A DNA stretch of 64,000 bases from positions 12,834,001 to 12,898,000 of the forward strand of contig NC_135256.1 of NCBI RefSeq assembly GCF_964204865.1, given 5' to 3'. Position 1 is the stretch's first letter; each line of letters begins with the position of its first letter. Positions 8,043 through 39,400 of this stretch are shown here, piece by piece. The notes beneath the pieces were generated by a model that was not told where the DNA came from, did no database searches, and worked only from the letters and a program-made list of their open reading frames with translations. Both the position numbers and the translations under genes were made by a program. The DNA comes from Styela clava (lineage: Eukaryota).

Positions 8043-8673
8043 GTATAATTACCTTAGAGCAAATGATCTTCGATTGATATTAAATCACCCTAAATGATTT
8101 TCCTTCGCAAATATGACTTTAAAATCACCAGGCAGAGCAATCGATGAAATTGACCGTTGTATGACTGGCTTGATCCATATTGTGCCAGACCTACTTATTT
8201 TGTTTGTGCGTTGTGATTTTTGTTTTGAGCCTAATGTTTCTCCCTTCGGGACAGGTCCCGATCGTACAAACTCATTTACGCCGTACTCTTTTTACTTGCC
8301 CACTATAGAATAGAATAGATGCAACGTTAAAAAATAATTTCTAAAACTACTTATCGACCCATACCTAAATCTTATTTCTTCATTTGGAACATCTAAAATA
8401 AACACTTACATAGCAATGCTATTTATGACATGAGTCAGTAACTTGCTCACTTCCAATTTTGAGTAATTCACGATCGCGTTTCAGATAAATTCGTCTGTCT
8501 CAAATCTCATAATTATTGTGTTTACACTAACCACTAACCGATCACCCTATGCATTGTTAACATGGTACATCTTAGTGATTTAACAAAACAAATTAATTAC
8601 GAGTTTTTTTAAATTATCAAGTACGGTCACTTCTTTACGGCACTTAATGATTCAAACGATTTCTATGTTTCAG

Positions 8674-8730
8674 ATACGACAAAGTCAAATGACACCGACG
8701 GAGAAAAATTGGAATCCAAAAGTGCGCAAG
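8674..8730 (+). CDS. Gene A coding exon 3 (57-nt phase 1-1 microexon)
   Basis: TTTCAG acceptor and CAAG|GTAGTC donor. Reads DTTKSNDTDGEKLESKSAQ and keeps the frame between exon 2 and the terminal exon. Confidence 0.75.
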
Positions 8731-8984
8731 GTAGTCCTATATATTTTTTCAAAATGAATCGCAAAAAATAGTTCAGTAGTAGTAATTATTATTATAAGTT
8801 CATATTTAAAATATATATTTCTTTTGTGTGAATTGGTTAGAAAGCGACTAGACGATTAAATTAGACGATTTCTCTTCTAAATCTATTGGCAGAGATAATT
8901 GAAACTTCAACGTGAAACACTCATCTCATCTATTGCTCCACGCACGTATATGAATTTGTATCTATTTTTTTCATTTTCTCATAG

Positions 8985-13800: not shown

Positions 13801-14827
13801 AAATTATGTATTCGAGGGACAAGTAAATGTAGCTACATAATTTAAACCATATTATTTTAAACCAAATTAGCTATGTTCCATACATATTAAAAAAAATAAG
13901 TGCAGAAATGAAAGAAAAAATACACTTTTGTTTTTGTCAGAAATTATTGTACATTCGTCAATATCACCATATGTGTGTATGTTGGCTGATTGGATATGAG
14001 GAACTGATTTATGGCAATTTATTCAACTAATGAAAAGACTACATTGAAATACTACAGGTGAGACAACTGACTTTTTAATTACAAAGTATCATGCAATAAG
14101 TATCTCAGTGCATGTCTCTCTCGTTCAACAATGTAAGTCATTATATACTTACTCATATTACAATATAGGATGTGCAAAGGTACTGTAACATTGTTACACA
14201 GTGAACAAACCATGATATTTACAAACATGAAAGTGTAGGTTGGTAGGCTACATCCTACGCAGTTTAGATAATTTTTATGAAATGAGCTTTCAATGTACAC
14301 TGATCAAAACTTTATCATTTTAACACTAAGAAAAATTCAATTGTATGGTAAATCAAAACAGACAAGAACAAAGCGTTTAACCAAGTGTCATCATCCATTA
14401 CCAGATTTGAAACAAGGGGCAATACCTTCTTATCGAATAGCCTTTATTGTCCAGGTGGGTCTGGGTCAAGGTTTGCAATTTGAGAAAGAGTGTCGTCTAC
14501 GTAGCTACAAACCGAGCAATTTACTAGATAAGATTATAAGTAGCTTTACGCTGTATAATATCATCTGCATGTTTTTGTACACTCGGAAGATTAAATCTAA
14601 GCGACAATTACTTTTTGTTTCGTCGTCTTATCAAATAAATAAATTCTTGGGCCTACTTAATCAAATACTAGTAGTTAATTTACACGCTCATTCGCGCGGT
14701 GATACAATTTCAGACGCCAAAACCTGGATATATCTGGATTGCGACTCGTTTATATAATGCATATCGACATTTAATGTAAAAACCAAAAACAACTCATATT
14801 TGACACGAATGTTACCTTGCAGGCAAC

Positions 14828-14940
14828 ATGGTATCTGAAAACATCGATCTTTCTTATCTGACGGTTGAAGAAAGGACAACGATTCTTAAAGTTCTAAACA
14901 GAGATGAGAAAATCAGAGAAACTGAGGAAAAAAGAGTCAA
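14828..14940 (+). CDS. Gene B coding exon 1: SHD1
   Basis: Acceptor CCTTGCAG (AG 14821-14822), ATG at 14828. Reads MVSENIDLSYLTVEERTTILKVLNRDEKIRETEEKRV, a near-canonical SHD1 (IDLSxLTxEExxxILKVLxRD). Phase-2 donor AA|GTATGA. A possible 5'UTR exon donor CAG|GTGAGA lies at 14057/14058. Confidence 0.92.
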
Positions 14941-15040
14941 GTATGAAAAAATGGATTAATTTTATTTCGTTGTTGAGGTCTATTTTGAAAGGGAATATAC
15001 CTATTTATTAAAACTTTTTGGAAATCGAAAAAAAAATTTA

Positions 15041-16153: not shown

Positions 16154-16308
16154 AATACTTCGACGAAAGTCAGTGAACTTCGATAAAAAACAATTGACTT
16201 TTCTGAAAATATTTACTGGCGAATGGATAAAAGAGGTAGCAACAAGAGGCAAGAACTTCACTCTAGCAGCTAGTGGTCTCGTTAGGACACATCTCTTAAC
16301 AACAACCG
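16154..16308 (+). CDS. Gene B coding exon 2: SHD2 (155 nt)
   Basis: Acceptor TGCTTTAAG, phase 2 in, strong donor G|GTGAGT phase 1 out. Reads ILRRKSVNFDKKQLTFLKIFTGEWIKEVATRGKNFTLAASGLVRTHLLTTT with the TGEW motif. Same length and phases as gene A exon 2. Confidence 0.88.
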
Positions 16309-16746: not shown

Positions 16747-17117
16747 GTTTACACGATACCAACAGCTAATGCCGTGCTAAAGTGCAGTAGTTACTTAGCT
16801 CTATCTATACTGCCATAAGTTGAATAAAAAGTTTTCGCCTTTTGATAATAAAACTGTTTCTCTGGTCATATGAGATCGAATTGTTTCACGTCTCGTGGCA
16901 ACCTCTATCTACTGGCATCTCTACCGAAAAAATTAATCTGTATAAAGCACTTAGTAGTTATTAGTAGTCATTTACAATTATTCTATCGTCGCTGTTCCTC
17001 TTTTTAGTTGATTGTTGAGTTAGGTAATTTCTCAACATCTTTGCAACCACATGATTTATTAACCTAGTGATTTATTGTCACATCATTATTCATCTTCAAA
17101 GTGTTTTATATCTGCAG

Positions 17118-17168
17118 AAACAGTTACCACTGCACCGTTGGAAATCATAGAGACTACGACAGATATAA
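17118..17168 (+). CDS. Gene B coding exon 3 (51-nt phase 1-1 microexon)
   Basis: TCTGCAG acceptor and A|GTGAGA donor. Reads ETVTTAPLEIIETTTDI. Positional equivalent of the 57-nt microexon of gene A. Confidence 0.65.
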
Positions 17169-17603
17169 GTGAGACTTTAATTGCATGCACATTTTTATGA
17201 CTGAGTTGGGAGAGGGGTTCTGGACGTTTAACTGTAGCGTAGAAACCAGTTTTGGTCACTGTTATTGTTTTTGATATAGCATGACTCAATGCTAACTGAT
17301 CATTATAATTTCGATGTAGTGTTTACTAAAAGAATATTTCCTAATCTGACATAGAGAAATAAATATTTAAATATATATTTTATATCTTTAACGTGATGGT
17401 AGTAAACGTTTTTTAAATTCTGACAAAATATGAAACCTCTAGTAGTTTCTCCAAACAAAAAGTAGCTAAGGTTTACTAATGCATTCCAATATCGATTGTT
17501 CACCTTATTATACATGGTAAATATTGGTAAAACTTTGTAACTAATACTTGAGTTTAAAATCTAACAACATTTGTTTTCTAACACACAATCTTAAATTTGA
17601 AAG

Positions 17604-20600
17604 ACTACAAAAAATCCAATGATGCTTCAGATAAAGAGAAAATCAATACCACGATCCAAGAACAGTCCATCAACAGACCCAAGGACACTTCAGTAGTTGT
17701 TACCATAGACGTCAAAGGCAATGACGTGAAAATTACATCCAAAGTTGATACCACTGCACCCCAAACTTCTCAAATTGAAAATTTAGCCCAGGAAAAACAA
17801 CAAATAAGCTTCGACGAGCACATCGAAAAGAAACAGATAGCCGATAAGTCGTTCAGCGAAAGCGAAGAAAAAGGTTCTCCAAGTGCGAACGATCCCAAAG
17901 AAACATCTGAAATATCGAAAGAGTCTGAAACGCCACCAGAAAATCATTCGAATGAAGAAGATGATGATAAGGAAGGAAAAAGCAAAATCGCCGAATGGTT
18001 TTCAGACACGTTCTCCTCATGGAATATTGGGAAGGACAAAAAGGATGACGACCCCGATGAAGAGGCGAATGAAGAAACTATTGTACCAACAAACGTAAGC
18101 AATGAAAATGTACCGAAATCTGTTGGCGGAGACGAGAAAGAGACTAAAGATAAATTCGAAAACTTTGCGGACCTAATAAGCACTGAATTTGATTCGACTT
18201 TTGCCCGATTAGACGAAACTGTTGATAAAATCACCATAAAAGATTACGCAGAAAATGAGCCGGAGGTCGTTCCTGTCATTGTTCCATCCGAAGAGTATCA
18301 ACCAGATTTATTCGGAAGGTTACTCGCGCAACAAACTGATTACACACATACAACGGCGAAACAAGAACATATGCAGTATGAAAAAACACCCAATAAAATG
18401 AGTCACTTGGGTGATGAGTTCAACGACGCCGACGTTGACATATGTAGAAGTTTGGAAAGCATCACAGATGAACCGTGTGAGATTAACCTTTCAGATTTAC
18501 GCTCCGGAGATACAGTAGAAACGGAAGAAATTGTGTTATATGCAGCAACCAACGAAATATCTGCGACGACTACGCCATTTTTAGATGTTCATATTAGCAA
18601 TGTTATAGAAACCCAACAAACAATATCTGCAGAAAATTTGATTCTGTCTACTGATCAAGCAGAGGCAGACATAAACTCTCCAATTAAATCGGATAACGGT
18701 ACATTTTCATTTGAAAGCAAAAATACTGAATGGGTTGAAGACATTTCAACGTTTGAACATGTCACTGAAACTAATAGTGCGAATGTGTTAGAAAACGCTG
18801 ATTTGGCGAATGCTGACAGTATTTTTAGCAGTGATGGCCATAATGTCCAAACAACTCCTTATTTACCAATACCACTATACACCGATAATTTGGCTCCGAC
18901 AGGGTCAGTTTCAGATGATGGTTCATACGGAGATGATCCTCTTTCTCTTGTAGAATTTCTAGATTCCATACCATCAACAGATCAAAGCGAAGTGAAATTC
19001 GAAAACAAATTTGGCTTCGAAAAACAGTTATCTATTGACGAAATCACAAGTTCGCAATCGGTATTGAATGTGGTGGAAGATCTTCTGCACAATGTTGAAA
19101 AGTTGCAATTTGAAAGTGAGTTGGCCGATGAAATTTTGACTGAGGACAACGGTTCACAACTCACAAATCTCTTTATTAAAGACGAGGCCGATGATGACAA
19201 CATCAGCATTCCTGTGAAAGAAATATCGGAAAAGATGTCTTCAGACTCTGGTGATGTTCACGCTGTGAGTAATGTAATCGTTCATCCGAGCGAACAGGCA
19301 GGTGAAATAATTCAATCGCAAACCACAAATACATATAATGTAATTTCAGATTCGGCATTGAACCTTGCAGTCTCTCCATCTTCTGCCGAAAATAAAATCG
19401 CTGCACAATCAAAGGATCTAACATTGGATGAGTCAACTGAGCAAACCATTGACATAACGGATGTCGCTCAAGTACAGGAAGCATCCACCTCAGCGAACGT
19501 CAATGTATCTGCTGAACAAACAACAGTGATTCAATGTGACGATGATGGAAATGATTTATCATCCGAATACGACAACACAACAGCATATAATACATTTCCA
19601 CAATTTGCGATTCGTTCAGATGTAGATACATCAGAACAAAAGAAAATTGAAATCTATTCTCAAAAATCCAATGTTAAAGACATTCCACAAAACTATTTTC
19701 ACGATGATAACACCGACTCAGTATTACACAAAGAACACGATCCTGAACCAAGTTATGCTCCAGAAGATTATATCGACTCGACCGAAAAAATTCTTGAAAA
19801 ACAGATAGATATTACTAATATTGAAGCTTCGGCAATTTCTGAACAATCTCCACAAGGCTCAGTAGAAATACCGCTGCTTACGACTGAAGAAAGCAGCAGC
19901 TTAGTAATAACAGGTGAAACAATATTAGACCAAGATATCGAGGATTCCTCAAGTACAATTCCTAGCGAAAGCAACAGCCCTGATATGCCAACATACATGA
20001 AATTTACAGAATTCAGTGATATCACTATACCAGACACTGATTACAATGCTGGCTTTAAACCTCTATGCGAAGCAATAGAAGAAGAAGATGAAACTCAAAT
20101 AGAAGAATCTCCTATACAACCGAAAATTCCAACAATTTCTATATCAGACTATGACGAGGAGAAATACAGAGAATACAGTGAGCAGTTCGACAGTGATGAT
20201 TCTGAACTTTACATCAGCGAGGGGAATGATTATGAACAGTACTTTTATGATCAACAATACCATGTTGATGATGATGACACCATTCCACAATATTCAGATC
20301 CCAACAACGGCGGATTTGAATCCCATCCTGATGAGGAAGTCATCCTAGAGGAATCATATGATTACGGAGCTTCGGAAACTAGTTCACATACTATTACAGA
20401 TGTTCATGATGCAACTGGTGAAGTCAAAGATATGATAACAAATTACGAAACTCCCGGTAATCACGATTCTGATATGAGAATGAAAAGTGAATCCGATGAA
20501 GCATTAACAAGCACGAAAAAAATTGAAATTCCTGGAAGTGGACACAGAACAGAAGTGGAAAGTGATATTTCATATGATTTGCCGTTTGTAAATAACAATA

Positions 20601-23600
20601 CTGGAATTCTTGATGCTCAATCTGATGACCACAACATAGTGATAGACTCTGAAACACTAGATATAACTCTTACAAACGACGATGTCACTTTAACACCTAT
20701 CTCGCATGATACATTGTATAATGATACTGGATTAGTTGAACCTAATGTTTCCGAGATATCAGAAGGAACAAATGACGACATGGTAATATCAACTGAAATC
20801 ATTGATAAAGCGACATCAATAATAACAGACGCAATGTCCAAAGCTATGGAGAGTTTTCTCGATGCTGATCGAAATGCCGGTGTTCATAAGGATTCAGGGG
20901 ACATAGCACCATCCGATGGAAGCTATCAAGTCGTTACAATGTCGCTAAATAATGAAAATACCAACACACTGGACATTGCAAACAGTGAAGAAATTGGTAG
21001 GCCAGGTAATGACTTCAAATCTACGAATGAAAGCAGTGATCTCGAGGTTGTAGGTGGGGACATTCCAAGCTCTATACCTTTCGAAATACCGGAAGATATT
21101 TCTGATCTCAAAGAAATAGACATATTGACTAAGTCTGAAAACACAAATGAGGTACAAAAGTATACTGATCATTTTACTCTTGATGACGAAACTGGGAAAC
21201 AACGTGATGGTTCTATGACTGAGAACATTTACAGTCCGAGTCATAGACAAATTGAATTGATACAACAACTCGGGGCTGAGTTGGTTGAAACAGTAACGGA
21301 AGCTATCGAAGCACTTTCTGCTGAAGAATCTTCAGACGAACTTGCAGACGACAAACCAACTGATAAAACTCTAAGCACTGCAACAGATAAGTTTGTCAAT
21401 GAAAGAAAAGAATCACAATCTCCACCAAAAAGCAAAGAAATATACATGGAAAAAATACCTATTGCCAGAGAATCCGAATCTGCAAATGATTTGGACGTTG
21501 AAAACAAAAGAAATGATATATCCTATATTGAAGATGAGAATCAATCTGTATCTGAAAATTCCAAACCATTAGATGAGACAATTGACGATGAAGCAGAAAC
21601 AAGTGCAATGCCTATCTCTACAGCTGTCGTGTTAGATGATATTGCAGCAAAAATAGTATTAGAAGCGATTATGGAATCACCCCCTATTGGAACTATTCCT
21701 GATACGACCGATTCAACAGAATATTCCAATGAAGGGAATACATCTGAAACCCAAGAATTACATGATGTTCAAGCCGATGATCAAACTGTAAGTCATGTTT
21801 CGAAAGAAACAATACCTTCCAGCATATATGAAGATACCAAGCCAAACAAAGACAATTCTGACATTCCAGTCACTATGTTATCATCCTCCGAAGACGTGTA
21901 TCCATTATCTTCAGTTAACACACAAGAAACTACTGAAGACTATCATAAACCTAAATCCGGAGATAGCGTTACTATGAAAGAAAAAAAGTCAGTAAAGAAA
22001 ATAAAGAGTATAAAGATAAAGAAGTCAGGTCAAAGTATTAAAAGAAGTAAGATCTCCACAGATGCAGACATACAAACAACAACTAGTTCCGAAGACTTGT
22101 CTAATACTGAAAGAAAGTCAAGAGCATCGACGAAAAGAAAAGTTATAAAGAAAAAAACTGACGTTGCCGGTAAAATTAGCAAAGTGAAATCAAACGAAAA
22201 TAAAGAAGGACATGATATTGAAGCTGTGCAAAATCTTGAAGAAATTCAAGAGTCTATCGGTGAAAGTCAGCCGGCAGAAAGTTCAAACAGTGCGTCAGTT
22301 GATGCGCTAGGAGAGTCTCATATGGAGGAAAAACCGAATGATGTTGAAAAACAATCTTTGAATCTGGCTGGTGATATTGATCCAGATATACAAAACTCAG
22401 CCAGAGCACTTGAAAGTGATGAAATGCTTTCATTGGGGGATATATTGTTAGAACTGAGAATAAACAGTCTCTCTGATAAAACAAGAACTGTGTCTGATCC
22501 GATACGTATATGTGATTCTCCAGAATTGCGAAATAAAGTAACTCAAGCGGAAACTTCTGTTTTAGGTACAATGGCTGAAGATGATGGTTCCGCACACGTC
22601 GCCCCTGAAACAGGCATAAATACGGAAATGGGTGAAAGAAAAGAGACAGATGGCATGCTTGCCTTTTCTGGTGAAACTTATGATCTTCAACAAGAAACAA
22701 TCGAAGATACGGCTGCGGAATTGCAATCAAACACATTGCATGACGCTACGTCTGAGAAAGATTCAGATGAAATATCTGCGAGTAAATCCATCGAATCAGA
22801 CGAAGTTACTTTCATATCCGACACCGAAGGTTCACTTCCAGTGTTGCAAAAGACAGAAACTAAAAAGGAAGAAGATATAAATAAGCACGACATCGATAAT
22901 GAGTTTGTCGCACAAGATGCCGAAAATGTCGAAAGAAACGAGACGGAACATGAAATGTTTCACATGCAATCAATACCCGAGGAACCTGATAGCCAGGATG
23001 AAAATGCTGCTGCGTCAATACCTCAAGATTTACAATACAGTGAACACCCCGTGCTTGCTCCGATTAAAGAGGAAGAGGCCGACGAAATATATAAGTCAGA
23101 ATATAGTGACGCATCGAGTTCCATAACGGAGATCACAAAAGATACAATTTTATCTGTGACCTCAGTGAATTTAGAAAACGAACCCTCATCCCATATAGAC
23201 TCAGCAGACAGAGATACTTTGCACTCTGCAATTAATATGAGGGAATTAATTGATGATGAGGATGACAAACTTTCACTTTTTGACATCCTGGCAGAACTTA
23301 ACTATGAAGCAAATCCAATGACTGGGGACTTGCAAGATACAGAAAATCCAATTTTTTTGTCACAAACTGAGGAAAAGAGTGGTGAAAGGAAAGTTTGGTA
23401 TTCGGAAGAGAAATCTACTCATTTGTCCGCGGAAGAAAAGGATACGACCTCTGTCGTGTCTGAATACGACAATGACATTACCAGTCAAAAATTACATATC
23501 GCCGAACAAGAAGAAATAAAGTTTGCACCTCAAGATGTAAACGTCAATACAACACACGATGGATCAGACGACATAATAAAATCACCTCTAAGTACAATGT

Positions 23601-26600
23601 GCGAAGGCGAAATAGATGGAACGTCGCAAAGGCTGGAAGAAGATATACCATTGGTCGAAAAGGTAGATGACTTCACTGGTAATGTAACAGACATTAGTCA
23701 ATCCATTCACAAAGACACCAGGGGTGTCGAAGAAAATACCGCATACCAAGAAAGCATGGGTTTTGATTACGATGCTGTCTTATCAGCTGAGTTAAATACC
23801 CAAGCTAATGATGGTGAGATTTCAAATTTAGCTGCTACGAAGAATCTCGATAGTACCAATGCAAATATGGAACAAAATACCGACTTTGAGAAAACTGAAC
23901 CGATTATTTCCGCTGGTTATCAACAAGAATTGGTAAAGGGAGTGGAAACCAATTTAAAAATGGGAACTGTCAGCCTTGAAAATGAAACTGCAAACTTAAC
24001 TCATACAGAAACATATGGCAGTAATGGTGCAGAAAAAAATTTTGTTAAAGATTTTAAAAACTCAGACGAAAATATCTCTATTAACGAGGAAGTCGAGGAA
24101 ACAGTCGTTGAGAGTAGCTTTACTCCAGTTGGAATTGATATCAACGAAACACACGAAAATGCAGACACGCTTTCGACGGACTATTCGAGTAGCGATCGAA
24201 AGCATGGCGAAAGGGTAGAAATTGATACTACACTTCCTGAGGTGTTGCCAATAGAACACGAACATGAGGACGACGTACACGCTCAAGATAGCTCAAATGA
24301 AGAAGGTATATATGGCAATGAAACCATAAATAATGAAAACAAAAATAATGATGGGCTAAAGGCAGCTAGCACTGAAAATGTAAATCAAGACCTCGCACTA
24401 TCTGTTGAAGAGGCAGTTGAGAATATTACTGGCCATGCTGAGGAAGATTCAAGCAAAAATCACGTGCACGTCAAAAATGTTGATATTGATACAACATTTT
24501 CTGAAGAATCGTCATTAAAAGACAGAGATTTACAAGCATATCTTAGCTCCAAGGAAGAACATGCAAGTGGCGAGCAAGAACCTAATGTTGTCATAATCAT
24601 GAAAACTGAAATGCTACTTGATAGCACTAAAGAACCCAATTTAGAAAAAGGTAATGTGGATTTGGAAAAAGAGAATGGAAGCCTAGAACGTGTTGATCTG
24701 GATAAAAATTCCAATGTCAATGCCAACCAAAATCTTCACGAAGACATTCAGATTTCCACAGAAAATATAATACCTCTCAAAATAACGAAGGAAACAAAAG
24801 ACGAAGATGATTTCACCAAACTGTCAGTGATTAACCAATCAACAAGTGAAAACATTGTCACTCAATCAATGCTATATTCAAGTAACGATCAAAATGACCG
24901 TGAACATAGAGATGTTGATACAGCGGATTCAAGTAATGAGCAAATACAAGTCGAACATATAGAAATTGAAGCAAATGTTTCCCAGGAGTTGCCAATAGAG
25001 CTGCAACATGATACTGGTATGCAAACACAATTTGGCTCCAATGAAGACCGCATAAGTGCCGGGGAAGAAACTGTTGTTGCCCAAAATATTAAAACGGAGA
25101 CAACCACTGATACTACAAAATCTGAACGGAAGAGTAAAAAAGTTGTTAAGAAAATTAAAAAACCGTCAGAAGATAACAAAAAGTCGGAATCGTCAATTAA
25201 AAAAGTCTCTGTTCGACGTAAAGTTGTTAAGAAGCCCAACGTTGCAATTAAACTGACAGATGCTGATCAAGGAGTAACTGAAATTGATGTTCCGGGTGAT
25301 GTTCCAAATCAACAAGAGTTGGCAAACGTGACAGAACCTGATTTGGCGAAAAAACCTGTTGATATGGACAACGAGATTGAAAACAAAACACATGTTGAGC
25401 TAGAAACATATAATACCGAGCAAGAAAAATCTTTGTCTGATGAAGTCATTAAAGACAAAGAGTTGATAAAAGATGGAGAAGCTGATTTGGAGATGAGTTC
25501 TGTTGACCTGAACAATGTGACTGATAACAAAACGCACGATCAGCTGCAAACATATCGCACTGATGATGTTAATCAAAATCTAGGCCAAGACTTTAATATT
25601 TCAGAGGAGTCTGCCGCGCCTCAGGATGTAAAGGATGAAGCAAAATTTGACGACAATTCTACCATAACCACAGTTGTTAACGACGAATCAAATGGAACCG
25701 TTACCGCATATTCGTTAGGTGAATCAAGTAATGACCTAATGCAAGTTGAACAAGACAAAACTGATACAAAAGTTTTCGAAGAGTTGCCGATAAATTCGCA
25801 AGATGATACGGACTTGCAAGCACAATTTGGCTCCAATGAAGATAGCATAAGCGCCGGGGAAGAAACTGCTGTTGCCCAAAATATTGAAACTGAGACAACC
25901 ATTGATACCACAAAATCTGAACGAAAAAGTAAAAAAGTTGTTAAGAAAATTAAAAAACCGTCAGAAGATAACAAAAATTCAGAATCACCAATTAAAAAAG
26001 TCTCTGTTCGAAGTAAGGTTGTTAAGAAACCAAACGTTGCAAATAAACTGACAGAAGAGAAGGTTGACAAAACTTATAATGAAAAAGATGCTGATCACGA
26101 AGAAACTGAAATTGTTGTTCCGGATGATGTTCCAAATCAACAAGAGTTGGCAAACGTGACAGAACCCGATTTGATGATAAAACCTGTTGATATGAACAAC
26201 GAGATTGAGAACAGAACACATGCTGAGCTAGAAACATATAATACTGAGAATACCATCCAAGAAAAACCTTTGTCCGATGAAATCATAAAAGACAAAGAGT
26301 TGATGAAAGATGCAGAAGCTGATTTGAAGATGAGTTCTGTTGACCTGAACAATGTGACTGATAACAAAACGCACGATCAGCTACAAACATATCGCACTGA
26401 TGATGTTAATCAAAATCTTGGCCAAGACTTCAATATTTTAGAGGAGTCTGCCGCGCCTCAGGATGTAAAGGATGAAACAAAATTTGACGACAATTCTACC
26501 ATAACCACAGTTGTTAACGACGAATCACATGAAAACGTTACCACATATTCGTTAGGTGAATCAAGTAATGACCTAATGCAAGTTGAACAAGACAAAGCTG

Positions 26601-29600
26601 ATACAAAAGTTTCCGAAGAGTTGCCGATAAATCCGCAAGATGATACAGACTTGCAAGCACAATTTGGCTCCAATGAAGATCGCATAAGCGCCGGGGAAGA
26701 TACTGCTGCTGCCCAAAATATTGAAAATGAGACAACCATTGATACCACAAAATCTGAACGGAAAAGTAAAAAAGTTGTTAAGAAAATTAAAAAACCGTCA
26801 GAAGATAACAAAAAGTTGGAATCATCAATTAAAAAAGTCTCTGTTCGACGTAAGGTTGTTAAGAAACCAAACGTTGCAAATAAAATGACAGAAGACAATG
26901 TTGATAAAACTTATAATGAAAAAGATGCTGATCAAGAAGAAACTGAAATTGTTGTTCCGGATGATGTTCCAAATCAACAAGAGTTGGCAAACGTGACAGA
27001 ACCCGATTTGGCAATTAAACTTGTTGATATGGATAACGAGATTGAGAACAAAACACATGTTGAGCTAGAAACATTTAATACTGACAATACAGACCAAGAA
27101 AAACCCTTGCTCGGTGAAGTCACAAAAGACAAAGAGTTGATAAAAGATGCAGAAGCTGATTTGAAGATGAGTTCTGTTGATCTGAACAATGTGACCGATA
27201 ACAAAGCGAACGATCAGCTACAAACATATCGCACTGATGATTTTAATCAAAATGTTGGCCAAGACTTCAATATCTCAGAGGAGTCTGCCGCGCCTCAGGA
27301 TGAAAAGGATGAAACAAAAATTCACGACAATTCTACCGTAGCCACGGTTGTTAACGACGAATCAAATGAAAACGTTACCGCCTATTCGATAGGTGAATCA
27401 AGTAATGAGCAAATGCAAGTTGAACCCATAGAAGTTGATGCAAAAGTTTCCGATGAGTTGCCGAAAGAACCGCAAGATAATACCGACTTGCAAGCACAAT
27501 TTGGCTCCGATGAAGATTGCATAAGCGCCGGGGAAGAGACTGCTACTGCCCAAAATATTAAAACTGAGACAACCATTGATACCACAAAATCTAAACGGAA
27601 AAGTAAAAAAGTTGTTAAGAAAATTAAAAAACCGTCAGAAGAAAACAAAAAGTTGGACTCACCAATCAAAAAAGTCTCTGTTCGACGTAAGGTTGTTAAG
27701 AAACCAAACGTTGCAAATAAACTGACAGAAGACGAGATTGACAAAACTTATAATGAAAAAGATGCTGATCAAAAAGAAACTGAAATTGTTGTTCCGGATG
27801 ATGTTCCAAATCAGCAAGAGTTGACAAACGTGACAGAACCCGATTTGGCGATAAAACCTGTTGATATGGACAACGAGATTGAAAACAAAACACATGTTGA
27901 GCTAGAAACATATAATACCGAGCAAGAAAAATCTTTGTCTGATGAAGTCATTAAAGACAAAGAGTTGATAAAAGATGAAGAAGCTGATTTGGAGATGAGT
28001 TCTGTTGACCTGAACAATGTGACTGATAACAAAACGCACGATCAGCTGCAAACATATCGCACTGATGATGTTAATCAAAATCTAGGCCAAGACCTTATTA
28101 TTTCAGAGGAGTCTGCCGCGCCTCAGGATGTAAAGGATGAAGCAAAATTTGACGACAATTCTACGATAACCACAGTTGTTAACGACGAATCAAATGGAAC
28201 CGTTACCGCATCTTCGTTAGGTGAATCAAGTAATGACCTAATGCAAGTTGAACAAGACAAAACTGATACAAAAGTTTTCGAAGAGTTGCCGATAAATTCG
28301 CAAGATGATACGGACTTGCAAGCACAATTTGGCTCCAATGAAGATAGCATAAGCGCCGGGGAAGAAACTGCTGTTGCCCAAAATATTGAAACTGAGACAA
28401 CCATTGATACCACAAAATCTGAACGAAAAAGTAAAAAAGTTGTTAAGAAAATTAAAAAACCGTCAGAAGATAACAAAAAGTCAGAATCCCCAATTAAAAA
28501 AGTCTCTGTTCGACGTAAGGTTGTTAAGAAACCAAACGTTGCAAATAAACTGACAGAAGAGAAGGTTGACAAAACTTATAATGAAAAAGATGCTGATCAC
28601 GAAGAAACTGAAATTGTTGTTCCGGATGATGTTCCAAATCAACAAGAAGTGGCAAACGTGACAGAACCCGATTTGATGATAAAACCTGTTGATATGGACA
28701 ACGAGATTGAGAACAGAACACATGCTGAGCTAGAAACATATAATACTGAGAATACCATTCAAGAAAAACCTTTGTCCGATGAAATCATAAAAGACAAAGA
28801 GTTGATGAAAGATGCAGAAGCTGATTTGAAGATGAGTTCTGTTGACCTGAACAATGTGACTGATAACAAAACGCACGATCAGCTACGCACATATCGCACT
28901 GATGATGTTAATCAAAATCTTGGCCAAGACTTCAATATTTTAGAGGAGTCTGCCGCGCCTCAGGATGTAAAGGATGAAACAAAATTTGACGACAATTCTA
29001 CCATAACCACAGTTGTTAACGACGAATCAAATGAAAACGTTACCACATATTCGTTAGGTGAATCAAGTAATGACCTAATGCAAGTTGAACAAGACAAAGC
29101 TGATACAAAAGTTTTCGAAGAGTTGCCGATAAATCCGCAAGATGATACAGACTTGCAAGCACAATTTGGCTCCAATGAAGATCGCATAAGCGCCGGGGAA
29201 GATACTGCTGTTGCCCAAAATATTGAAAATGAGACAACCATTGATACCACAAAATCTGAACGGAAAAGTAAAAAAGTTGTTAAGAAAATTAAAAAACCGT
29301 CAGAAGATAACAAAAAGTTGGAATCATCGATTAAAAAAGTCTCTGTTCGACGTAAGGTTGTTAAGAAACCAAACGTTGCAAATAAAATGACAGAAGACAA
29401 TGTTGATAAAACTTATAATGAAAAAGATGCTGATCAAGAAGAAACTGAAATTGTTGTTCCGGATGATGTTCCAAATCAACAAGAGTTGGCAAACGTGACA
29501 GAACCCGATTTGGCAATTAAACTTGTTGATATGGATAACGAGATTGAGAACAAAACACATGTTGAGCTAGAAACATTTAATACTGACAATACAGACCAAG

Positions 29601-32600
29601 AAAAACCCTTGTCCGGTGAAGTCACAAAAGACAAAGAGTTGATAAAAGATGCAAAAGCTGATTTGAAGATGAGTTCTGTTCATCTGAACAATGCGACCGA
29701 TAACAAAGCGAACGATCAGCTACAAAGATATCGCACTGATGATTTTTATCAAAATGTTGGCCAAGTCTTCAATATCTCAGAGGAGTCTGCCGCGCCTCAG
29801 GATGAAACAAAAATTCACGACAGTTCTACCGTAGCCACGGTTGTTAACGACGAATCAAATGAAAACGTTACCGCCTATTCGATAGGTGAATCAAGTAATG
29901 AGCAAATGCAAGTTGAACCCATAGAAGTTGATGCAAAAGTTTCCGATGAGTTGCCGGAAGAACCGCAAGATAATACCGACTTGCAAGCACAATTTGGCTC
30001 CGATGAAGATTGCATAAGTGCCGGGGAAGAGACTGCTACTGCCCAAAATATTAAAACTGAGACAACCATTGATACCACAAAATCTAAACGGAAAAGTAAA
30101 AAAGTTGTTAAGAAAATTAAAAAACCGTCAGAAGAAAACAAAAAGTCGGACTCACCAATCAAAAAAGTCTCTGTTCGACGTAAGGTTGTTAAGAAACCAA
30201 ACGTTGCAAATAAACTGACAGAAGACGAGATTGACAAAACTTATAATGAAAAAGATGCTGATCAAAAAGAAACTGAAATTGTTGTTCCGGATGATGTTCC
30301 AAATCAGCAAGAGTTGACAAACGTGACAGAACCCGATTTGGCGATAAAACCTGTTGATATGGACAACGAGATTGAAAACAAAACACATGTTGAGCTAGAA
30401 ACATATAATACTGACAATACAGACCAAGAAAAACCCTTGTCCGATGAAGTCACAAAAGACAAAGAGGTGATAAAAGATGCAGAAGATGATTTGAAGATGA
30501 GTCCTGTTGATCTGAACAATGTGACTGATAACAAAGCGCACGATCAGCTACAAACATATCGCACTGGTGATCTTAATGAAAATCTTGGACAAGACTTCAA
30601 TATCTCAAAGGAGACTGGCGCGCCTCAGGATGTAAAGAATGAAACAAAAATTGACTACAATTCTCCCGTAACCACAGTTGTTAACGACGAATCAAATGAA
30701 AACCTCACCGCATATTCGATAGGAGAATCAATTAAGGACCGAATGCAAGTTGAACATATAGAAATTGATGCAAAAGTTTCCGAAGAGTTGCCGATAGAAC
30801 CGCAAGATGATACAAACTTGCAAGCACGATTTGGCTCCGATGAAGATCGCATAAGCGCCGGGGAAGAGACTGCTGTTGCCCAAAATATTAAAAATGAGAC
30901 AACCATTGATATCACAAAATCTGAACGGAAAAGTAAAAAAGTTGTTAAGAAAATTAAAAAACCATCAGAAGATAACAAAAATATGGACTCACCAGTTAAA
31001 AAGGTTTCTGTTCGACGTAAGGTTGTTAAAAAGCCCAACGTTGCAATTAAACTAGGTGAAGACGAGGTTGTTAAAAGTAATAAGAAACAAGGGGGCGATG
31101 GTGAGGAAGCCAAAAATATCATCTCCGATGAGGCTCAGAATCAACATAAGTTGATAAACGTTGCAGAAATCAATTTGGAAATGCAGTCTGTTGATACGGA
31201 CAACGAGATTGAAAACAAAACACACATTGAGCCAGAAACATATTACACTGACAATGTCATTTTGAATCTTAGCCAAGATTTACAAAACCCCCAAAAATAT
31301 GCCTTGCTTGGTGAAGTAATTGATGAACCAAAAACAAAAGATAGATTAACCGAAACTGCGGCCACGATGGTCGAAACAAGCGATAACGTCACCGCCCAGA
31401 TTATGGAAGTTACAAGTAGTAATCAAATGCATGTAGAAAATGACACAATAGGGTCTGGGGAGTTGGCGATAAAACTTCAAGACGATAAGGATGTGCTAAC
31501 TCAAGTTGTATCTGCCGAAGAACGTACAGGTGACGAGCAAGAGATTGCTGACGCCAATAATATTGAAAGTGAAGCAAACATTGATACTACAAAATCTGGA
31601 CGGAAGAGTAGAAAAGTTGTGAAGAAAATTAAAAAACCATTAGAAGGTGACAAAAAATCGGATTCACCCCATAAGAAGATTTCCGTTAGGCGTAAAGCAA
31701 CAAAGAAACAAGGCGATGAAGTGAAAATTGCAGAAGACGAAGTTGCTACGGGTAATGCGGAAAATCAAGATGACCAAGAAAACTCTGAAACTACTATTTC
31801 TGATAAAGTGCAAAATCACGAAGAGTTGAATAAAGATGCAGGAACCGGATTGAAGAACGCTTTTGTTGACGTGGATAATGCGACTGATAACAAAGCATTT
31901 GATCAGCTCCAAACATATCTTACTGGGGATGACAATCAAAATCTTGTCCAGGACTCTGATATCACAAAGAAGTATGCCGTGCCCCAGGATGCAACGGGTG
32001 GCACAGAAATTGACGATAATTCAACCATAACCATAGTTACAGCAAATGAAAATGTTATCGCATATTCGACAAATGATTCAAGTAACGACCAAATGCAAGT
32101 AGAACAAATAAAATTCGATGCAATAGTATCCGAGGAGTTCCCGATGGAACTCCAAGGCGATATGGATGTAAAAGCACAAATTGTCTCAACTGCTGAAGAC
32201 CGCGTAGGCGGCGTGCAAGAGACTGCTGTTACCGAAGGTATTAATAAAGAGACTACCATTGAAATCATAAAACCTGATCGGAAGAGTAAAAAAGTTGTAA
32301 AGAAAATTAAAAAGCCAATGAATAATGACAATAAGTCTGATAACCCACCGAAAAAAATTTCGATTAGGCGCAAGATTATTAAGAAGCCAAAAGACACAGA
32401 GGACCCTAGTGAAGATGTGTCTGACATAATAGGTACAGAACAACAAACTATTGATGAAACTGAAAAAATGGCCCACACTGACATTCAAACTCCACAACAT
32501 GAGTTGTTGAAAGTTTCAGAAGGCAATTTACAAATAGATGCATCAGATCTAACTACAGACAATGAAAATAAAATAGACATTGATCAACAAGAACATAAAA

Positions 32601-33397
32601 GAGATGATCAAAATAATCACGATGATTTCCCAATGTCACCAGAACACGTTTTGCCTGATGAAGTACCCGATGATAAAAACGTCGTGATGAATCGCACTCA
32701 AAATTTAGACAAAGAAGAACAAGAAACGAATCAATCCTCGAATTTAAAAGCCGATCTACCGGACGGTGAAGAAGATATTGTTGCCGCAAACGAATCACTT
32801 CCCGAAACACTCAATTTGGAAAGTACCGCGAACGAACTACAAGCTACTGATGTTCACATAAATTTGACAGAAAAATCAGACAATTTGGAACTTGATGGAA
32901 CAGATCTAGATCCGTTGGCGACTGCCCAACTGCACGACGCCCATAGCACCAAGAAAATTGTCAAAAAAACGAAAACACTTTCCACAGCCGGGGAGAGTTT
33001 AAAAAAACCATCCATCAGGCGAAAGGTCATCAAGAAGAAAGAAAAATCAAACAAAGAAGTTTCTCAAGATGGCGAAATTGAAACTAGCAAAGAAAACCCC
33101 AAAGGGTCATCCGGAAATAAGGAGGGAGAGTATCTTATGGAAGAAATTGATTCCGGAACTAAAGCGTCAGTGCCTGTTGCAACAAGCTGTAATTTAACTC
33201 TAGAAACTACTTCTTCTAATCTAACCATGACGGAAGATGGAGGGGACATTGCTGAAGCAAAGCCATCTAAAAAAAGCATAAAGGTATTGAAGAAATCGGT
33301 GAAAAAAGACCTGGACGAAAAGGATTCGAACAAAGACGATTCCCCAACACCAAAGAAAAGTTCCACTCGCCGAAAAGTCGTAAAGCGCACAAAATAA
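17604..33397 (+). CDS. Gene B giant terminal exon (about 15.8 kb): acidic, probably disordered region with tandem repeats (whole protein about 5370 aa)
   Basis: Uninterrupted 5266-codon ORF with no ATG at its start. Phase-1 acceptor AAG at 17601-17603 with branch-like CTAAC at 17578; an alternative phase-1 CAG lies at 17628-17630. Repeat-unit length differences are all multiples of 3. Confidence 0.9.
24920..32560 (+). repeat. Coding tandem array of about 10 units (675-837 bp) with a 2.5-kb higher-order duplication
   Basis: The KKVVKKIKKP anchor recurs at 25142, 25937, 26774, 27611, 28439, 29276, 30104, 30941, 31616 and 32294 (spacings 795, 837, 837, 828, 837, 828, 837, 675, 678). Units 2-4 match units 5-7 at offsets 2502, 2502 and 2493. 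Confidence 0.95.
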
Positions 33398-33401
33398 TAA
33401 A
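33396..33401 (+). terminator. AATAAA overlapping the stop codon of the giant exon
   Basis: Sequence AAA TAA TAA AAC; the hexamer shares bases with the stop codon at 33395-33397. Confidence 0.3.
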
Positions 33402-33736
33402 ACTATGCACGGGAGGTGGACTTTTCAACTATGAACAAAGAACATATGATCAATTCCTTTCTGATATTAGTATATATTTCAAGAGGAAATACAACAAATA
33501 GCGCTGCACCAAACTATGGGGTTCTTTGTTTAACTTTAGTATATCTCTGATGAATATGAAATGGAGTCCAATAAGAACATGTCATTCTTAGCTTATAATT
33601 TGATATGGCAATCTACATGCCTGCTAAAGGCATATTTTATTTGACGACTAAGCCTCATTCAAGTGCGCCTGAGAGTTTCCTGGTTCTTCGGAACACTTTT
33701 GTGACAGGACATTAACGTTGTCCAATCTTTTTTCAG

Positions 33737-36498
33737 ATATGGTGAGAGGTGTAGCCGGTTTAGCAACTGACACATCCACTTCTATAGTGGCGGGTGCCGT
33801 TGGTGGTGTGGCAACTGTGGTCACCGGTATTGCGGAGACGGGAACACTTGCTGGTACTGGTGGAGCTGAGATTTTGGTGACTGGCGTGATGCGCACAGAT
33901 ATTATGTCAGACGGAGTCGTTGTAGAGGAATCTGCATTAGAAGCAGACATCGCGACAGTCAACGTTGATCAAGCCAGCACAGAAAGTGAGAAATATATTG
34001 TTGTTAAGCCGGCGAAAAAACGAATAAAAAAGAGCGTTCAGAATACAATTCACCAGAAAGAAGTCATAACTCCACAAACACAAGTATTAAAGAAAAAAAT
34101 CATCGTTGAAGATAATCTTGCAGAAAGCAAACCTCAAGTAGATTTGGTTAAAAAAGAAATTGTGATTCAGAATTTCATTCCATGCGAACCCAAAGTCCAA
34201 ATATTGGCAGAAAAAGAAATTTTGATTCAAAGGCCTTCAACACAAAAGCCAGCAATAACTATAGAAAGTGTCGCTGTTCAGATTGATGAAAACCCGATTA
34301 CACAAGACGGATATGAATGTGCTGAAGAGATTCTAATCAGGCAGGATGTAGTTTCGATCTCTGATTCTCAATCGGGGTCATTCTCATCAGAAGATAATCA
34401 GAGTTGTGATTCTCAATATGAAGTTTTGATTCAAGATGAGATTCTCTCTCACGCTGTGGATGAAAAACAAATATCAGAACAAAACCCTTTGGCTTTTAAA
34501 GAAGCAACAATTCAGATTGATAAGCAGATTATTTGTGACAGCGAAGACGATGCAGAACATGAAGAAATTTTGGTTTATGAGCAATTTACTTCGAATTCTG
34601 AATGCCAATCAGAAGATTCTTCTATTGGTATCCAGGTTCAGGATAATAATGCCTTTCAGTCAACCACGGAATTAGTTTCGGAAACTCAAGAGCAGACTAT
34701 GCAAGCGGGTGAAATACGGAAAGCAGTACAAGATATTATGATAACGTCGAAGGAAGCCACTAATGCAGCTCAGATCGATGTTCAGGAAATTGATGTTAAT
34801 TTCAACTCCAGCTCAAAGAAGAAAACTGGCATTGCAGGGTCGGCAGTTGGTATTATTGGAAACGTTTTCTCGTCTGCCAAGAATATATCTGTAGGTAAAC
34901 ATGCTGCAAAGATTGTAAATGGCGCCAAGGAAACAGTTGTCGGATTGATTCCTAGTGTTACTCCGCATGACGTGATCATATCAGCTTTTGATAATGAAGC
35001 CATCGTAGAGGTTGACAACAGTAGTAGTGGAACTAATATTGTTGAAGTTGTAAGTAGCACTACAAGGCTGCCTACAAGACTTTTCGAAATCGCAAACATT
35101 GGAGGAATTGTTGAAGGTGGGTCAAATATTGTGAATGCTGCTGTGACCGGGCCTGTTGAAATTACCAGCGGCGTAGTCGACGTAGTTGGAGTTGGGGGTG
35201 TGATCGAAAGTGGAAGGAACGTCGTTGGGAGAATTACAGAAGGTGGATCAAATATTTTACATGCTGCTGTGACCGGACCTGTTGAAATTACAAGCGGAGT
35301 AGTCGACGTAGTTGGAATTGGGGGTGTGATCGAAAGTGGGGGAAACTTGGTTGAATTCGCAACGGACACTGTAGGCGTAACCGATGGCATTAATAGCGTT
35401 GTTGAAATGGCAAGTATTGAAAGAGTCGTCGGCACTGGAGGAGATATTGTGGATGTCGTTGTTGATACCATTAATATTTCGGGTGATGGCATTGAAAGAA
35501 CAGAAATAGTGGAAGAAGTGATTGTTGATAGGGATTCCGAGCCAATTCAAATGCAACAAAATCTTGTAGCTTCTGCTGCACATAGAAAAGTAATAAAGAA
35601 AGCGAAAAAGGCTGGACAATTTCCTCCAGAAGAGCAAAGAGACATTGTGATACAAGAAAATCCGAACACACAAATCGGACAAGTTGTGGATCTCATAAAG
35701 CTACAAGACCAGGTAACAGTTGGTAAACAAATCAGCTCAGATGGTAAAGCAGTAACTGAAACCAAACAAATTTCACGAGACGTGGAACCATTGATTGCAA
35801 AAAATACTGAGGTCGTTAAAATTATACAAAAAGCACCAATGAAAACACAAAACGTTAGCCAGGGTGAAAAGAGAAAGAAAATTGTAAAAGCGGTACAAAA
35901 GCAAGATGCTCTGGTAACAATAAAAGAAAAGGGCAGTAAGGAACCGAACGAAAAAACGACACAGGTGAAAGCGATGCCGGTTCAAAAACAGAGCGTAAAG
36001 CGTAAAGTAGTAAAGAAAATTACCAAGAAAGTCAATCCCACAAAAGTCGTTGAAACAGCTACACAGCAAGAGTCCAAGATTATTCCAAAAGTTGTTATTC
36101 CTCTGGTCGATCAAAAAGTTATACCCGGTTCGAAAATAGTCCAAGGTAAAGTTCTATCAACTAAGGTAGTTACATTTGATGAGGATTTCCAAAGGAAAAT
36201 GGATGATGCTGAAATGGATAGACTGGAACGAATCGCCCAATCACAAGAAGTAGGTCAGACTTCTAAAGAAGTACAGCAACCAGCGGATGGCATCAAGTTG
36301 ACCCAAGAATCTCTCGTGGAAGAACTTGTAAGTCACGACGTTCAAGATGTCGTTTCTCAGATGTGGGATATGCTAGACGACGACTCTAATCAACAAGGAG
36401 AACAAAATATAGCTCAGACACAAACTGCAAAAAAATTGACAAAAGTAGTCAAAGTTGCTAAAAGCTCCATACCACAGCAAGCTGTCCACGTGAAGTAA
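33737..36498 (+). CDS. 2.76-kb coding exon: probable alternative terminal exon of gene B (isoform about 1026 aa), or a separate single-exon gene from ATG 33739
   Basis: 926-codon ORF. Strong acceptor TCTTTTTTCAG (33734-33736) with TTAAC upstream, in phase 1 like the gene B donors. Shares the KKVVKK-type basic motif (KRKVVKKITKK, RKVIKKAKK) with both other tails. V/G/E/Q/K-rich, with no recognisable folded domain. Confidence 0.8.
35113..35358 (+). repeat. 126-bp (42-aa) coding tandem duplication
   Basis: EGGSNI..AAVTGPVEITSGVVDVVG.GGVIESG.N starts at 35113 and again at 35239. Confidence 0.9.
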
Positions 36499-39400
36499 CT
36501 TCCTAACGTGTATCATATTCATAATGCTCCATGGTCAATACCAAATTATCTCATTTCACACAAATACATTATTAAAATATTTTATTTTAAAAGCATAATT
36601 TCAATGTTATTTCTACTTTAAATATTTGAACTGTTTGTCATGTTGTTAGAGAACGAACATATCGTTAAAATATTATTTAAACATCTACATTACTGATATT
36701 ATATTTCTACTTTTACATTTGACCAATAGTAGCTTTGATATTAGAAACCCGTGTTTCATAGCAAATACTCCAGCGAAATACTTTATAGTCTTCAAATAGC
36801 TTCATATTTACCTGTATCAGGCTTTTCTTTATAATTGCGATCTTCGAGCTTCCACAGGTGATTCACGTAACACTGTTGTACTAAAATGTCTACCAAGAAC
36901 GATGAATTAACACCAAAACGAAATGGTTCGCTGTATATTCTCATTTATCTTCTTGCAGAAATGGCAGTTCTTACCCATACCATTGCGTCTAAATATATAA
37001 CTTTAACCAAGTTTCAATACACAAGTATCTGTTTGGATAAAATTCCATCACGAATAAGTTAATTCACTTTTGAATAACAAAATTCTTAAATATTTAAAAA
37101 TTATTATACTTTTTGCATAACTAGGTTTTTTAATTAGCAATCGAGAATTAACTATAATGTAGATTTGAAAACTTCACGATATATCGTAGTGGTCATAAAA
37201 TATTCAATCATTCATGAAGTATCGGATGTGTTAAAATGTAAAATTCACGTTTTGTGTTTCTCCAAGCTCTCCACTGTTTAAAATTGTATATAGTCCTAAA
37301 TTTTAACATAATTCGCTATTTAATATATGTAACCGCTATTCGTTACAACTTATATCATTTCACACACAGTGTACTTGTTTTACTGTTATATGATAATTAT
37401 ATTCCTAATATCAATATCGGTTATAAATGTGTATACCCACTTGGTCGTATTAAAAGGTTATACGTTGTGATTTTTAGAGACTGGTTCAAGTTTCTTAAAT
37501 AAGGCATTGGGCTATCAGGCTCCTCTTATAGTTATAAAAAGGTTAATAACACCTTTCAGTGGATAGCCTACCGTCTGGAATTACTGGCGGCTGGACATGA
37601 AGTGAATATCTGAAATAATTTGCGTCCCTGCTTTTGCAACTCTGTTTTACGAGCAAAAGATATATATTTGATATTGTGCCTAGTGTAATCAGCCACTTTT
37701 TCTAACACACGGCAAAAAATTGTCAAGGGACTAATAATAAATATCCGACTATGTTTTATTCCCAACTAAATCAAAAGCGCAGGCAGACGCTCCAAGTCAA
37801 ATGTTAGGGACAACAACGTGATTTAGGGTCCAGGCACTGCCCTAATACATATATATTTCATCCCATCCATCGACAGATTAAATATAATGGGTGAGCTATG
37901 CAGAACCGTATAAATTCCAGTTTTCCTCAACCCAGCAGCTCCTAATTCCTATGCGTAGATTGACTTCTGCTTGCTGTTTGGGGAAAAAAAATCTATTAGC
38001 ATGTTCGCCCCAGGTACTTCACAACTTTTTCTGGTCATGTGATTTAAATTTGTTATGTGAATGAATGCTTACAATTTGAAAACGCTGGGTCGAAACATAC
38101 ATTTGGATGTAATCGATCCTTTTCTGTATTGATAACCATTTTATATTATTTTTATGTTTCTGTATTTCCCATGCTTCAATCTCAGATGTTGATCATCAAG
38201 TTTGTGATTTGTAGATTATCGGACTGTAAATTTACTGTTACTATTGCTTAATTATCGAAATGTGCCCATTTTTGTAAATAAAATATAATATATAACACAG
38301 TTTCAATGAAGAAATGTTAGGAATCCATCTAATACGATATTTTGGAGAAAGAAGACGTGTAGGAACGCCGCGGTCATCATATTTTTATATAAAACCTTTG
38401 ACAATTTGAGTTTTTAAACGAAAATTATTCGGCATCAAATGCGTTTGATGTTTAGTCTATTTTATCAATAAATAATATATGTAGCATCTAAAGTTTGTTT
38501 GAGAGATTTGTTTCAGGCCTGGGTAACTTACCTAAAACGCAATAACGAAGTCCTTTCAAACGGGAAGGAAAGCCCTATTGCCCTCACACAATACTTTTCA
38601 GAAAGAGCCGGTTCTTTTTCAAAAACAAACATAGCATGTAAACTATAGTGTATTTTAGAACTCACAATCTCAAAAGATTTGACTAAGCAGAAATGTATTA
38701 GTAAAATCTTCATAACACCTTTGCATTGCACTCCATGTGTTTGACACAAACTCTATCAGTCAATATTTTTCTGCTGTGCTGTTTGTGAAACTTTTGTAAT
38801 ATGCTGAATTGAAAATATTCCGAGCAAAAGCGTTCAAAAAAGGGCCCAGAAATCACATAGTAATCCCAGTCTCATCTGTTAATAGGCTATTCAATTCGCC
38901 TTAAAATTATGCTCTGAAGTATGTGAATAGGACTGTTTAACCTGTCTTCATAGATGGCAACCTATTTGACATAATTATGTTTTTTTTTTAATGCGAGTTA
39001 TCTTCAGTCGTTTGTCAGACAGAATGTGATTATCCCAAAATTAGATTTGGCGTAGCCAATGTCGTGGTCGAGCATATTTTTATCTATGAGTCGGGTGTCA
39101 AAAAGCCTGGCGTAAAGTGTAGAAAGCGTGGCTTGACCGCTGTATATTTCTCATATGTTTCATCTGAAATGAATGGTCGTCTATAGACCTATAGCTATAG
39201 CATTGTTCACGATCATATCATTAGTCCAGATCTCAGTAGATTTTGCACAATGTTTTAACGCATGAATATGTGAAGGGCATAGGACAGTTGTATTTTTCGT
39301 CTCCTCGCGATGATTCCTATGAAGGGACGCATCCTGCTACACGTAAAGGAACTGCTGAATCGAGACAATGAAACCGAATCCTAATGTATATGTGATCTTT

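Follow-up and report, generated by a model that had tools for sequence, protein, structure and literature searches.

Coding repeats with units of about 1 kb are known from exon 3 of filaggrin, for which whole-unit and five-unit block insertions are reported, together with intragenic recombination that leaves hybrid units (PMC13720807). Slac2 proteins are characterized by a Slp homology domain (SHD) without C2 domains, and the C-termini of Slac2-a and Slac2-c bind actin (PMC10153138). Melanophilin binds actin via a positively charged cluster, and phosphorylation switches it between actin and microtubules (PMC11189624). The uncharacterized gene LOC120327732 of the sea squirt Styela clava shares features with both systems. 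We analysed it within a window of 64,000 nucleotides, bases 12,834,001-12,898,000 of contig C8 (NC_135256.1; the genome has 377 Mb in 380 contigs). In our estimation, the giant last exon of this SHD gene probably harbours a length-polymorphic coding macro-repeat, generated most likely by unequal crossing-over, and the protein is likely a long disordered tether in which a basic binding motif has been multiplied. A literature search gave no paper on the gene among its top-ranked matches.

The repeat array and its alleles

The array lies inside a single open frame of 5,271 codons on the + strand (17582-33394). A protein search with this frame retrieved two records, both from S. clava LOC120327732 and annotated 'uncharacterized'; P0001, with 5,361 amino acids (aa), is 100% identical to the window frame. 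About ten coding repeats of 0.7-0.8 kb make up the array, in the following parts:

23855-24353 (+), decayed relic unit, b-type by alignment inspection (local score 204 against a maximum of 131 in 200 shuffles)
24926-25135 (+), 3' part of a partial unit, U0, placed by alignment and by the start of self-BLAST homology
25136-30934 (+), seven young core units, U1-U7, of 795-837 bp, each with a basic bipartite motif, sub-repeats a and b and an acidic 3' part
30935-31609 (+), old unit U8 (a-type, 675 bp), homogenised with the core over its first 41 codons
31610-32287 (+), old b-type unit U9, 678 bp, placed by anchor spacing and sub-repeat comparison
32288-33394 (+), motif of U10, decayed tail and C-terminal basic motif (...SPTPKKSSTRRKVVKRTK stop), placed by anchors and by motif and charge inspection

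Units start at KKVVKKIKK anchors (25136, 25931, 26768, 27605, 28433, 29270, 30098, 30935, 31610 and 32288), spaced 795, 837, 837, 828, 837, 828, 837, 675 and 678 bp apart. Four of the seven core units are exactly 837 bp long and the rest deviate through in-frame indels. An initial annotation had described a nested repeat with a 51-aa sub-repeat, a unit of ~279 aa and a trimer of units; this description holds, now measured at all three levels, and so does its remark that indels preserve the frame, as every spacing and every core end-to-end self-BLAST offset is divisible by 3. The partial unit upstream (23855-24353) beats its shuffles; similarity after 32400 does not (97 against a shuffle maximum of 116). 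Units U2 and U5, like U3 and U6, are 98.6% identical and U1 and U4 97.0%, while the remaining core pairs are 89-94% identical and the core is 69-72% identical to U8 and U9.

The repeat unit is predicted to have no fold, as an AlphaFold2 model of U2 (from a shallow alignment of six rows) had a mean predicted local distance difference test score of 42 and no helix of four or more residues. Tandem Repeats Finder, with its period limit of 500, did not detect the array. Among 13 candidates for the basic motif in the genome itself, only the 10 units of LOC120327732 match; among 1.84 billion representatives, the unit retrieved P0002 as its sole match, and a protein atlas gave no usable match. Because disordered sequence diverges fast, these database negatives are no proof of novelty.

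The three-unit block within the core has the following parts:

25351-27913 (+), trimer copy A, 98.8% identical to copy B
27853-30406 (+), trimer copy B, with one 9-bp deletion near 29799; present as a single copy in the allele P0002
27853-27913 (+), crossover interval, from informative substitutions, within the chimeric unit U4 (5' U7-type, 3' U1-type)

The near-perfect duplication of this block, as first noted, is recovered with an offset of 2502 and then 2493; over 2,563 columns its copies differ by 30 substitutions and one 9-bp indel, at 22 nonsynonymous and 6 synonymous codons, and they pair in the unit tree. The origin of the block is recorded in U4, in which all 18 informative substitutions up to 27852 are in the U7 state and 60 of the 61 beyond are in the U1 state. 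Such a sharp chimera argues that the trimer came from a single unequal crossover: one exchange between U7 and U1 within 27853-27913 would convert U1-U2-U3-U7 into the seven units observed. The chimeric U4 thus supports the unequal crossing-over proposed by the initial annotation. Its comparison to a satellite higher-order repeat does not hold, since the trimer is one block duplication with two copies from one event, and is missing from the other allele. Between 29612 and 29823, in U6, a stretch of ~220 bp holds the 9-bp deletion together with 9 of the 30 differences between the trimer copies (scan P ~0.04); these are mostly private to U6 and possibly mark a conversion tract or local relaxation.

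The second allele is represented by P0002, a LOC120327732 protein of 5,008 aa that is an earlier version of the P0001 accession. It appears to be a different haplotype from another assembly, because it differs from the window by 3-4% of amino acids outside the array (109/2,591 and 12/369). Its units measure 265, 279, 279, 279, 274, 225, 226 and 217 aa, as against 265, 279, 279, 276, 279, 276, 279, 225 and 226 aa in the window. Without the trimer, the core of P0002 is exactly U1-U2-U3-U7, four units, and it is followed by two units that the window lacks, one of 274 aa after U7 and one of 217 aa after U9. Both were found in read contigs, examined over 30231-36600, of three read sets (one study gave X1, which may be the source of the assembly itself, and X3; a second study gave X5). 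X1 shows the 274-aa unit by an ELKKDE junction and X3 by an in-frame gap of 15 bp at 30408, both absent from the window; the 217-aa unit is seen as the joints 32284>30932 (X3) and 31017>30246 (X5). A further X5 contig, 31676-32347 (6 differences), bridges U9 and U10 as the window does, and this sample seems to hold forms with and without the 217-aa unit. As the extra units of P0002 occur in read contigs of several samples, polymorphism in unit number is established, in support of the length polymorphism that had been thought likely. In the region ~23600-25100 the two annotated alleles differ in 8-10% of amino acids, compared with ~3% elsewhere, and reads of X1 and X3 hold a second, clearly different U0-type sequence, which from its sequence could be a deeply diverged allele or a further unit.

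Origin of the sub-repeat and selection on the motif

Within the core units, the innermost level of the nesting is exemplified by U2, in which 153 bp is the best internal offset:

26102-26407 (+), two 153-bp sub-repeats in U2, a (26102-26254) and b (26255-26407), 63% identical in nucleotides

Across the core, a and b share 59-64% of their nucleotides; in-frame 153-mers of the non-repeat exon, used as a null, share 30 +/- 4% (maximum 45%). The claim that U8 and U9 each carry a single copy proved correct, with the addition that the copies are different ones, a-like in U8 and b-like in U9. Copy a is 72-75% identical to U8 and 63% to U9, and copy b is 67-70% identical to U9 and 62-63% to U8. In its 3' part, the core stands nearer to U9, at 74% identity, than to U8, at 63-64% (Fisher p 0.004). 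Since the 3' parts of U8 and U9 are 63% identical, the same as a and b (59-64%), the two sub-repeats differ as much as the old unit types do. Core a also matches the a-type unit of the other allele at 33 of 47 positions, compared with 50 of 120 for the 3' part of that unit (p 0.001). The sub-repeat itself is real, as annotated, but to judge from these identities it is more likely the scar left where two older unit types were joined than the supposed tandem duplication within a unit.

A history in four steps can be proposed. An old array of ~225-aa units would have diverged into a-type and b-type units. A deletion reaching from the 3' part of an a-type unit through the motif of the b-type unit behind it would then have joined the 5' half of the one to the 3' half of the other, setting homologous 51-aa segments side by side and creating the 279-aa unit in one step. 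This unit next multiplied to four or five copies, a step shown by the unit tree, and the U7/U1 crossover within 27853-27913, legible in the DNA itself, doubled the three-unit block on the window haplotype. Other haplotypes carry units missing from that one.

Selection for an open frame, suggested by the initial annotation, finds support in the seven core units: their 156 variant alleles include no stop, where 5.4 were expected (P ~0.004). Selection is not confined to the frame, however; the ratio of nonsynonymous to synonymous rates between units (omega) indicates that the lysine-rich motif is constrained too. In the spacer, 30 synonymous changes stand beside 107 nonsynonymous ones (omega 0.9-1.2); in the motif segment the counts are 9 and 10 (omega 0.35-0.42, p 0.02-0.05). 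Overall, omega is 0.8-1.0. Eight unit types agree with one another at 19 of the 33 leading columns, which hold the motif, and at 10 of 104 columns of the 3' spacer. What selection preserves is the open frame together with the KKVVKKIKK...KKVSVRRKVVKK motif; the acidic spacer is almost unconstrained. Serines adjoin basic residues in the motif (SPIKK, KKVSVRR) and, from their consensus, look like what we presume to be kinase sites.

Host gene, rival readings and proposed function

The initial annotation had left the host gene unnamed. The annotated proteins P0001 and P0003 connect the giant exon with three small exons upstream, whose junctions rest on splice sites and on the NCBI models (14828-14941, 16155-16307 and 17117-17167), the two being in agreement:

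14823-14941 (+), coding exon 1, an SHD1-like helix (MVSENIDLSYL...), ATG at 14828, phase-2 donor; P0001 residues 1-38
16154-16308 (+), coding exon 2, SHD2-like part with a TGEW motif and without zinc-finger cysteines; P0001 residues 39-89 at 16155-16307
17117-17168 (+), small coding exon 3, phase 1-1, from splice sites; P0001 residues 90-106
17604-33397 (+), giant terminal coding exon of ~15.8 kb, acidic and predicted to be disordered, from the 5,271-codon open frame and the mapping of P0001 and P0003

The giant exon has two annotated acceptors (isoforms X1 and X2), and its stop TAA at 33395 overlaps an AATAAA. Exon 1 has its best PDB matches in Slp2-a and melanophilin, and matches Pfam FYVE_2 at positions 2-29 below the cut-off (E 0.0018). 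When P0001 residues 1-90 were compared with PDB at E <= 10, all seven matches were to Slp2-a or melanophilin (melanophilin E 0.13), the Rab27-binding domain of Slp2-a (3bc1_B) being matched at E 0.001 with both SHD1 and SHD2 covered. These matches, weak but consistent, indicate that the small first exons encode a zinc-less SHD-like domain of the Rab27-binding type. Neither P0001 residues 1-90 nor the SHD of P0004 contains a cysteine, so a zinc finger between SHD1 and SHD2 is absent. P0004, P0006 and P0007 showed no C2 domain, and the annotated isoforms terminate at the stop of the giant exon; on C8 within 300 kb of the window there was no C2 match among the 69 matches listed (at least 103 candidates scored). 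The giant frame holds no Pfam family above cut-off, a sub-threshold HTH_Tnp_4 match in it being dismissed as chance, and no longer homolog of the 90-aa head was found at E <= 10 among 115 candidates of 159-2000 aa, which is weak evidence. The protein has a net charge of -620, and its short basic peaks coincide with the motifs.

A tandem paralog lies upstream in the window:

6239-10864 (+), LOC120328371, 732 aa, uncharacterized, with the same four-exon plan, an SHD and one C-terminal bipartite basic motif, and without the repeat array

LOC120328371 is 53% and 36% identical to two relatives. Across the three, the SHD is invariant at 49 of 89 columns and the acidic middle at 18 of 222, and two C-terminal basic stretches at 12 of 16 and 17 of 23 columns. 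In both sequence and order, the stretches (KKKVVKKIVKKK ... TVRKKVVRK) are like the halves of the repeat motif; compared with local shuffles, the likeness of the second half is reached by 1.7% of shuffles and that of the first half by 29%. A predicted model of the paralog has a confident helix at 11-44. Its internal stretches PTNK.PVRRTSIRKKK, VKF..EKTEKYIYEQ and KKKIRVVKRKGSSRR are kept in both relatives, and their sequence suggests further binding motifs. Elsewhere in the genome, five more SHD1-like exons were seen (C3:4189064, C3:1231077, C1:20946369, C10:15394435 and C16:536210), of which C3:1231077 has C2 matches after it and looks like a conventional Slp.

Several observations weigh against the interpretation favoured here, and they are best considered with the alternatives they bear on. 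The trimer might be a merger of two alleles, or P0002 a collapsed version: the 1.2% divergence of the trimer copies is within the allelic range (0-2.3% in longer read contigs of the flanks), P0002 carries one copy, and the core/flank depth in Hi-C data, 5.1-fold (82 reads, bootstrap 3.3-8.2), fits four units as well as seven. A heterozygosity of 1.72% is reported (PMC7540406). An assembly artefact that set two alleles in tandem in an otherwise real array is nevertheless very improbable. At the join, the sequence switches once and sharply, inside 61 bp, from one unit to another just 90% like it, and the copies share 21 amino-acid states against P0002, with ~23 sites separating the copies from each other. 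In X1, a DNA run, the G at 30307 common to U4 and U7 lies in a contig of depth 15.7, single-haplotype contigs being mostly at 6.5-10, and a third U7-like 5' variant, TEDEV, is present at depth 6.5; these depths indirectly suggest three U7-type starts in one animal, on the assumption of the linkage seen in X3 and X5, and contig depth is not equal to copy number. Summed contig depths over the core (~5-7x flank) were not used as copy numbers, and a depth of 82.9 on the U2/U5 junction in X3 was judged uninterpretable.

Two further alternatives concern how the units arose and whether they matter. The 153-bp sub-repeat could be a true tandem duplication in the ancestral unit, of which U8 and U9 then lost different copies; this likewise explains why U8 is a-like and U9 b-like, segment trees can be scrambled by recombination, and the 217-aa unit could be a recombinant of core and a-type units, which would weaken one test of the fusion. 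We regard it as rather unlikely, as it requires one duplication and at least two reciprocal losses, and under it a and b should predate the unit types, whereas they are as identical to each other as the 3' parts of those types are. The preferred origin is still a fusion. It is also conceivable, though we judge it unlikely, that the array, real and polymorphic as it is, is near-neutral disordered filler in which selection acts just against stops and frameshifts and only the terminal motif or the SHD matters. The omega of ~1 in the spacer and 0.8-1.0 overall, the excess of nonsynonymous over synonymous codon changes (22 against 6) between trimer copies, the whole-unit differences between alleles and a 732-aa paralog that works without an array all fit this account, and the motif omega is based on 19 changes. 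However, every unit, old or young, retains the motif, and the spacers decay to 36-54%. On the side of the host gene, the SHD is matched weakly (by Pfam below its cut-off, in the PDB at E 0.001-0.5) and has TGEWI in place of SGEWF, sequence searches found no ortholog of the repeat outside S. clava, and the likeness of the repeat motif to the paralog C-terminus may be convergent low complexity, as only its second half beats shuffles.

By analogy, LOC120327732 likely encodes a disordered, multivalent vesicle-cytoskeleton tether. If the Slac2 family is a guide, the SHD-like N-terminus would bind GTP-Rab27 on secretory vesicles, and at least 10 basic patches, with acidic disordered linkers between them, would make electrostatic contacts with F-actin, or else with microtubules or acidic lipid. 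The number of units would then tune tether length and valency, probably under loose constraint, and the natural alleles would form a series for the effects of length and valency of a disordered Rab effector on vesicle capture. A broader proposal, to which we give low credence, is that stolidobranch-type sea squirts own a C2-less pair of Rab27 effectors, of which one copy in S. clava became a 5,000-residue multivalent tether as the family's single C-terminal basic, cytoskeleton-binding motif was amplified more than 10-fold, wild alleles varying in valency and length by up to three units per step, so that vesicle-tether length segregates and is tunable.

The giant exon and its repeat are likely transcribed. 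X3 has one contig of 4,205 bases, from 32284 to 36488, besides contigs over the repeat, and both X3 and X5 are probably RNA, because their contigs total 53-59 Mb for a 377-Mb genome and X3 reaches a depth of ~50 here; this status is deduced from contig totals, no listed run being recorded as RNA. The probable-RNA contigs pass the stop at 33395 unbroken into a second long frame, which begins 340 bp past it:

33737-36498 (+), second long open frame of ~920 codons with three basic motifs; a phase-1 AG acceptor fits the donor at 17168

This frame may be an alternative last exon. X5 has a 12-bp in-frame insertion inside it and a 5-bp deletion in the spacer ahead. No protein record was found that matches the frame exactly, and it is not clearly related to P0004 (score 75, shuffle maximum 100) or P0001 (151, maximum 149). 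A two-copy, Gly/Val-rich tandem repeat of 126 bp lies within it at 35099-35353. At the edges of the window, 1571-1816 (+) is the last exon of MCM7 (Pfam HTH_MCM7, E 1e-15), with earlier MCM-like exons in stretch L025, and 61707-61886 (+) is an exon-like frame with clean AG/GT ends (DVVETVLIARNQ...) and no significant Pfam match, probably part of another gene. Inspection by eye of stretches L019 and L022, further downstream on C8, showed two open frames resembling histone H1; L020 has transposase-like frames.

Comparison with known systems

In its repeat biology, LOC120327732 is closest to filaggrin. It has in-frame units of several hundred bp in one exon, and its alleles differ in unit number with hybrid units at the joins, as in a macro variable-number tandem repeat; both genes have a giant last exon of in-frame units (roughly 1 kb in filaggrin) and alleles that differ by whole units or blocks. 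Filaggrin is an S100-fused precursor that is cut into monomers. In contrast, the head of LOC120327732 is an SHD and its units are acidic with a basic motif; the likeness is structural and no sequence relationship is claimed. Hornerin, Ki-67, AHNAK and the NBPF/Olduvai triplets are further examples of nested or long tandem coding repeats in large exons, encoding disordered proteins, and their sequences and hosts are unrelated to LOC120327732.

As in satellite higher-order repeats, units at the same position of the block are more alike than neighbours, which is also true of the protein super-repeats of nebulin and titin. Unlike all of these, the trimer of LOC120327732 has two copies, stems from one event, is present in one of two known alleles and consists of disordered units instead of folded domains, and we saw no sign that its period has a function of its own. 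That the 'nested' level is probably a fusion scar also cautions against reading a hierarchy off dot plots.

With Slac2/exophilin proteins (Slac2-a is melanophilin, Slac2-b exophilin-5 and Slac2-c MyRIP), LOC120327732 has in common an N-terminal SHD with no C2 domain found, a long low-complexity body and a basic C-terminal cluster. Its SHD is zinc-less as in Slp2-a, while melanophilin has a zinc finger; it differs from Slac2-a and Slac2-c in lacking this finger, in its size of ~5,400 aa and in its polymorphic repeat array. We would place it, by domain plan, with SHD proteins of the Slac2/exophilin type, without assigning it to any one vertebrate gene as an ortholog. Two uncharacterized tunicate genes would thereby gain a family assignment, and a short conserved basic motif is highlighted. 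Taken together, the repeat biology is filaggrin-like and already known, and what is new is the assignment to a family and the amplification of a conserved motif; as an instance of that biology the case is unusually well resolved, with a crossover mapped to 61 bp and three unit-number differences between two alleles.

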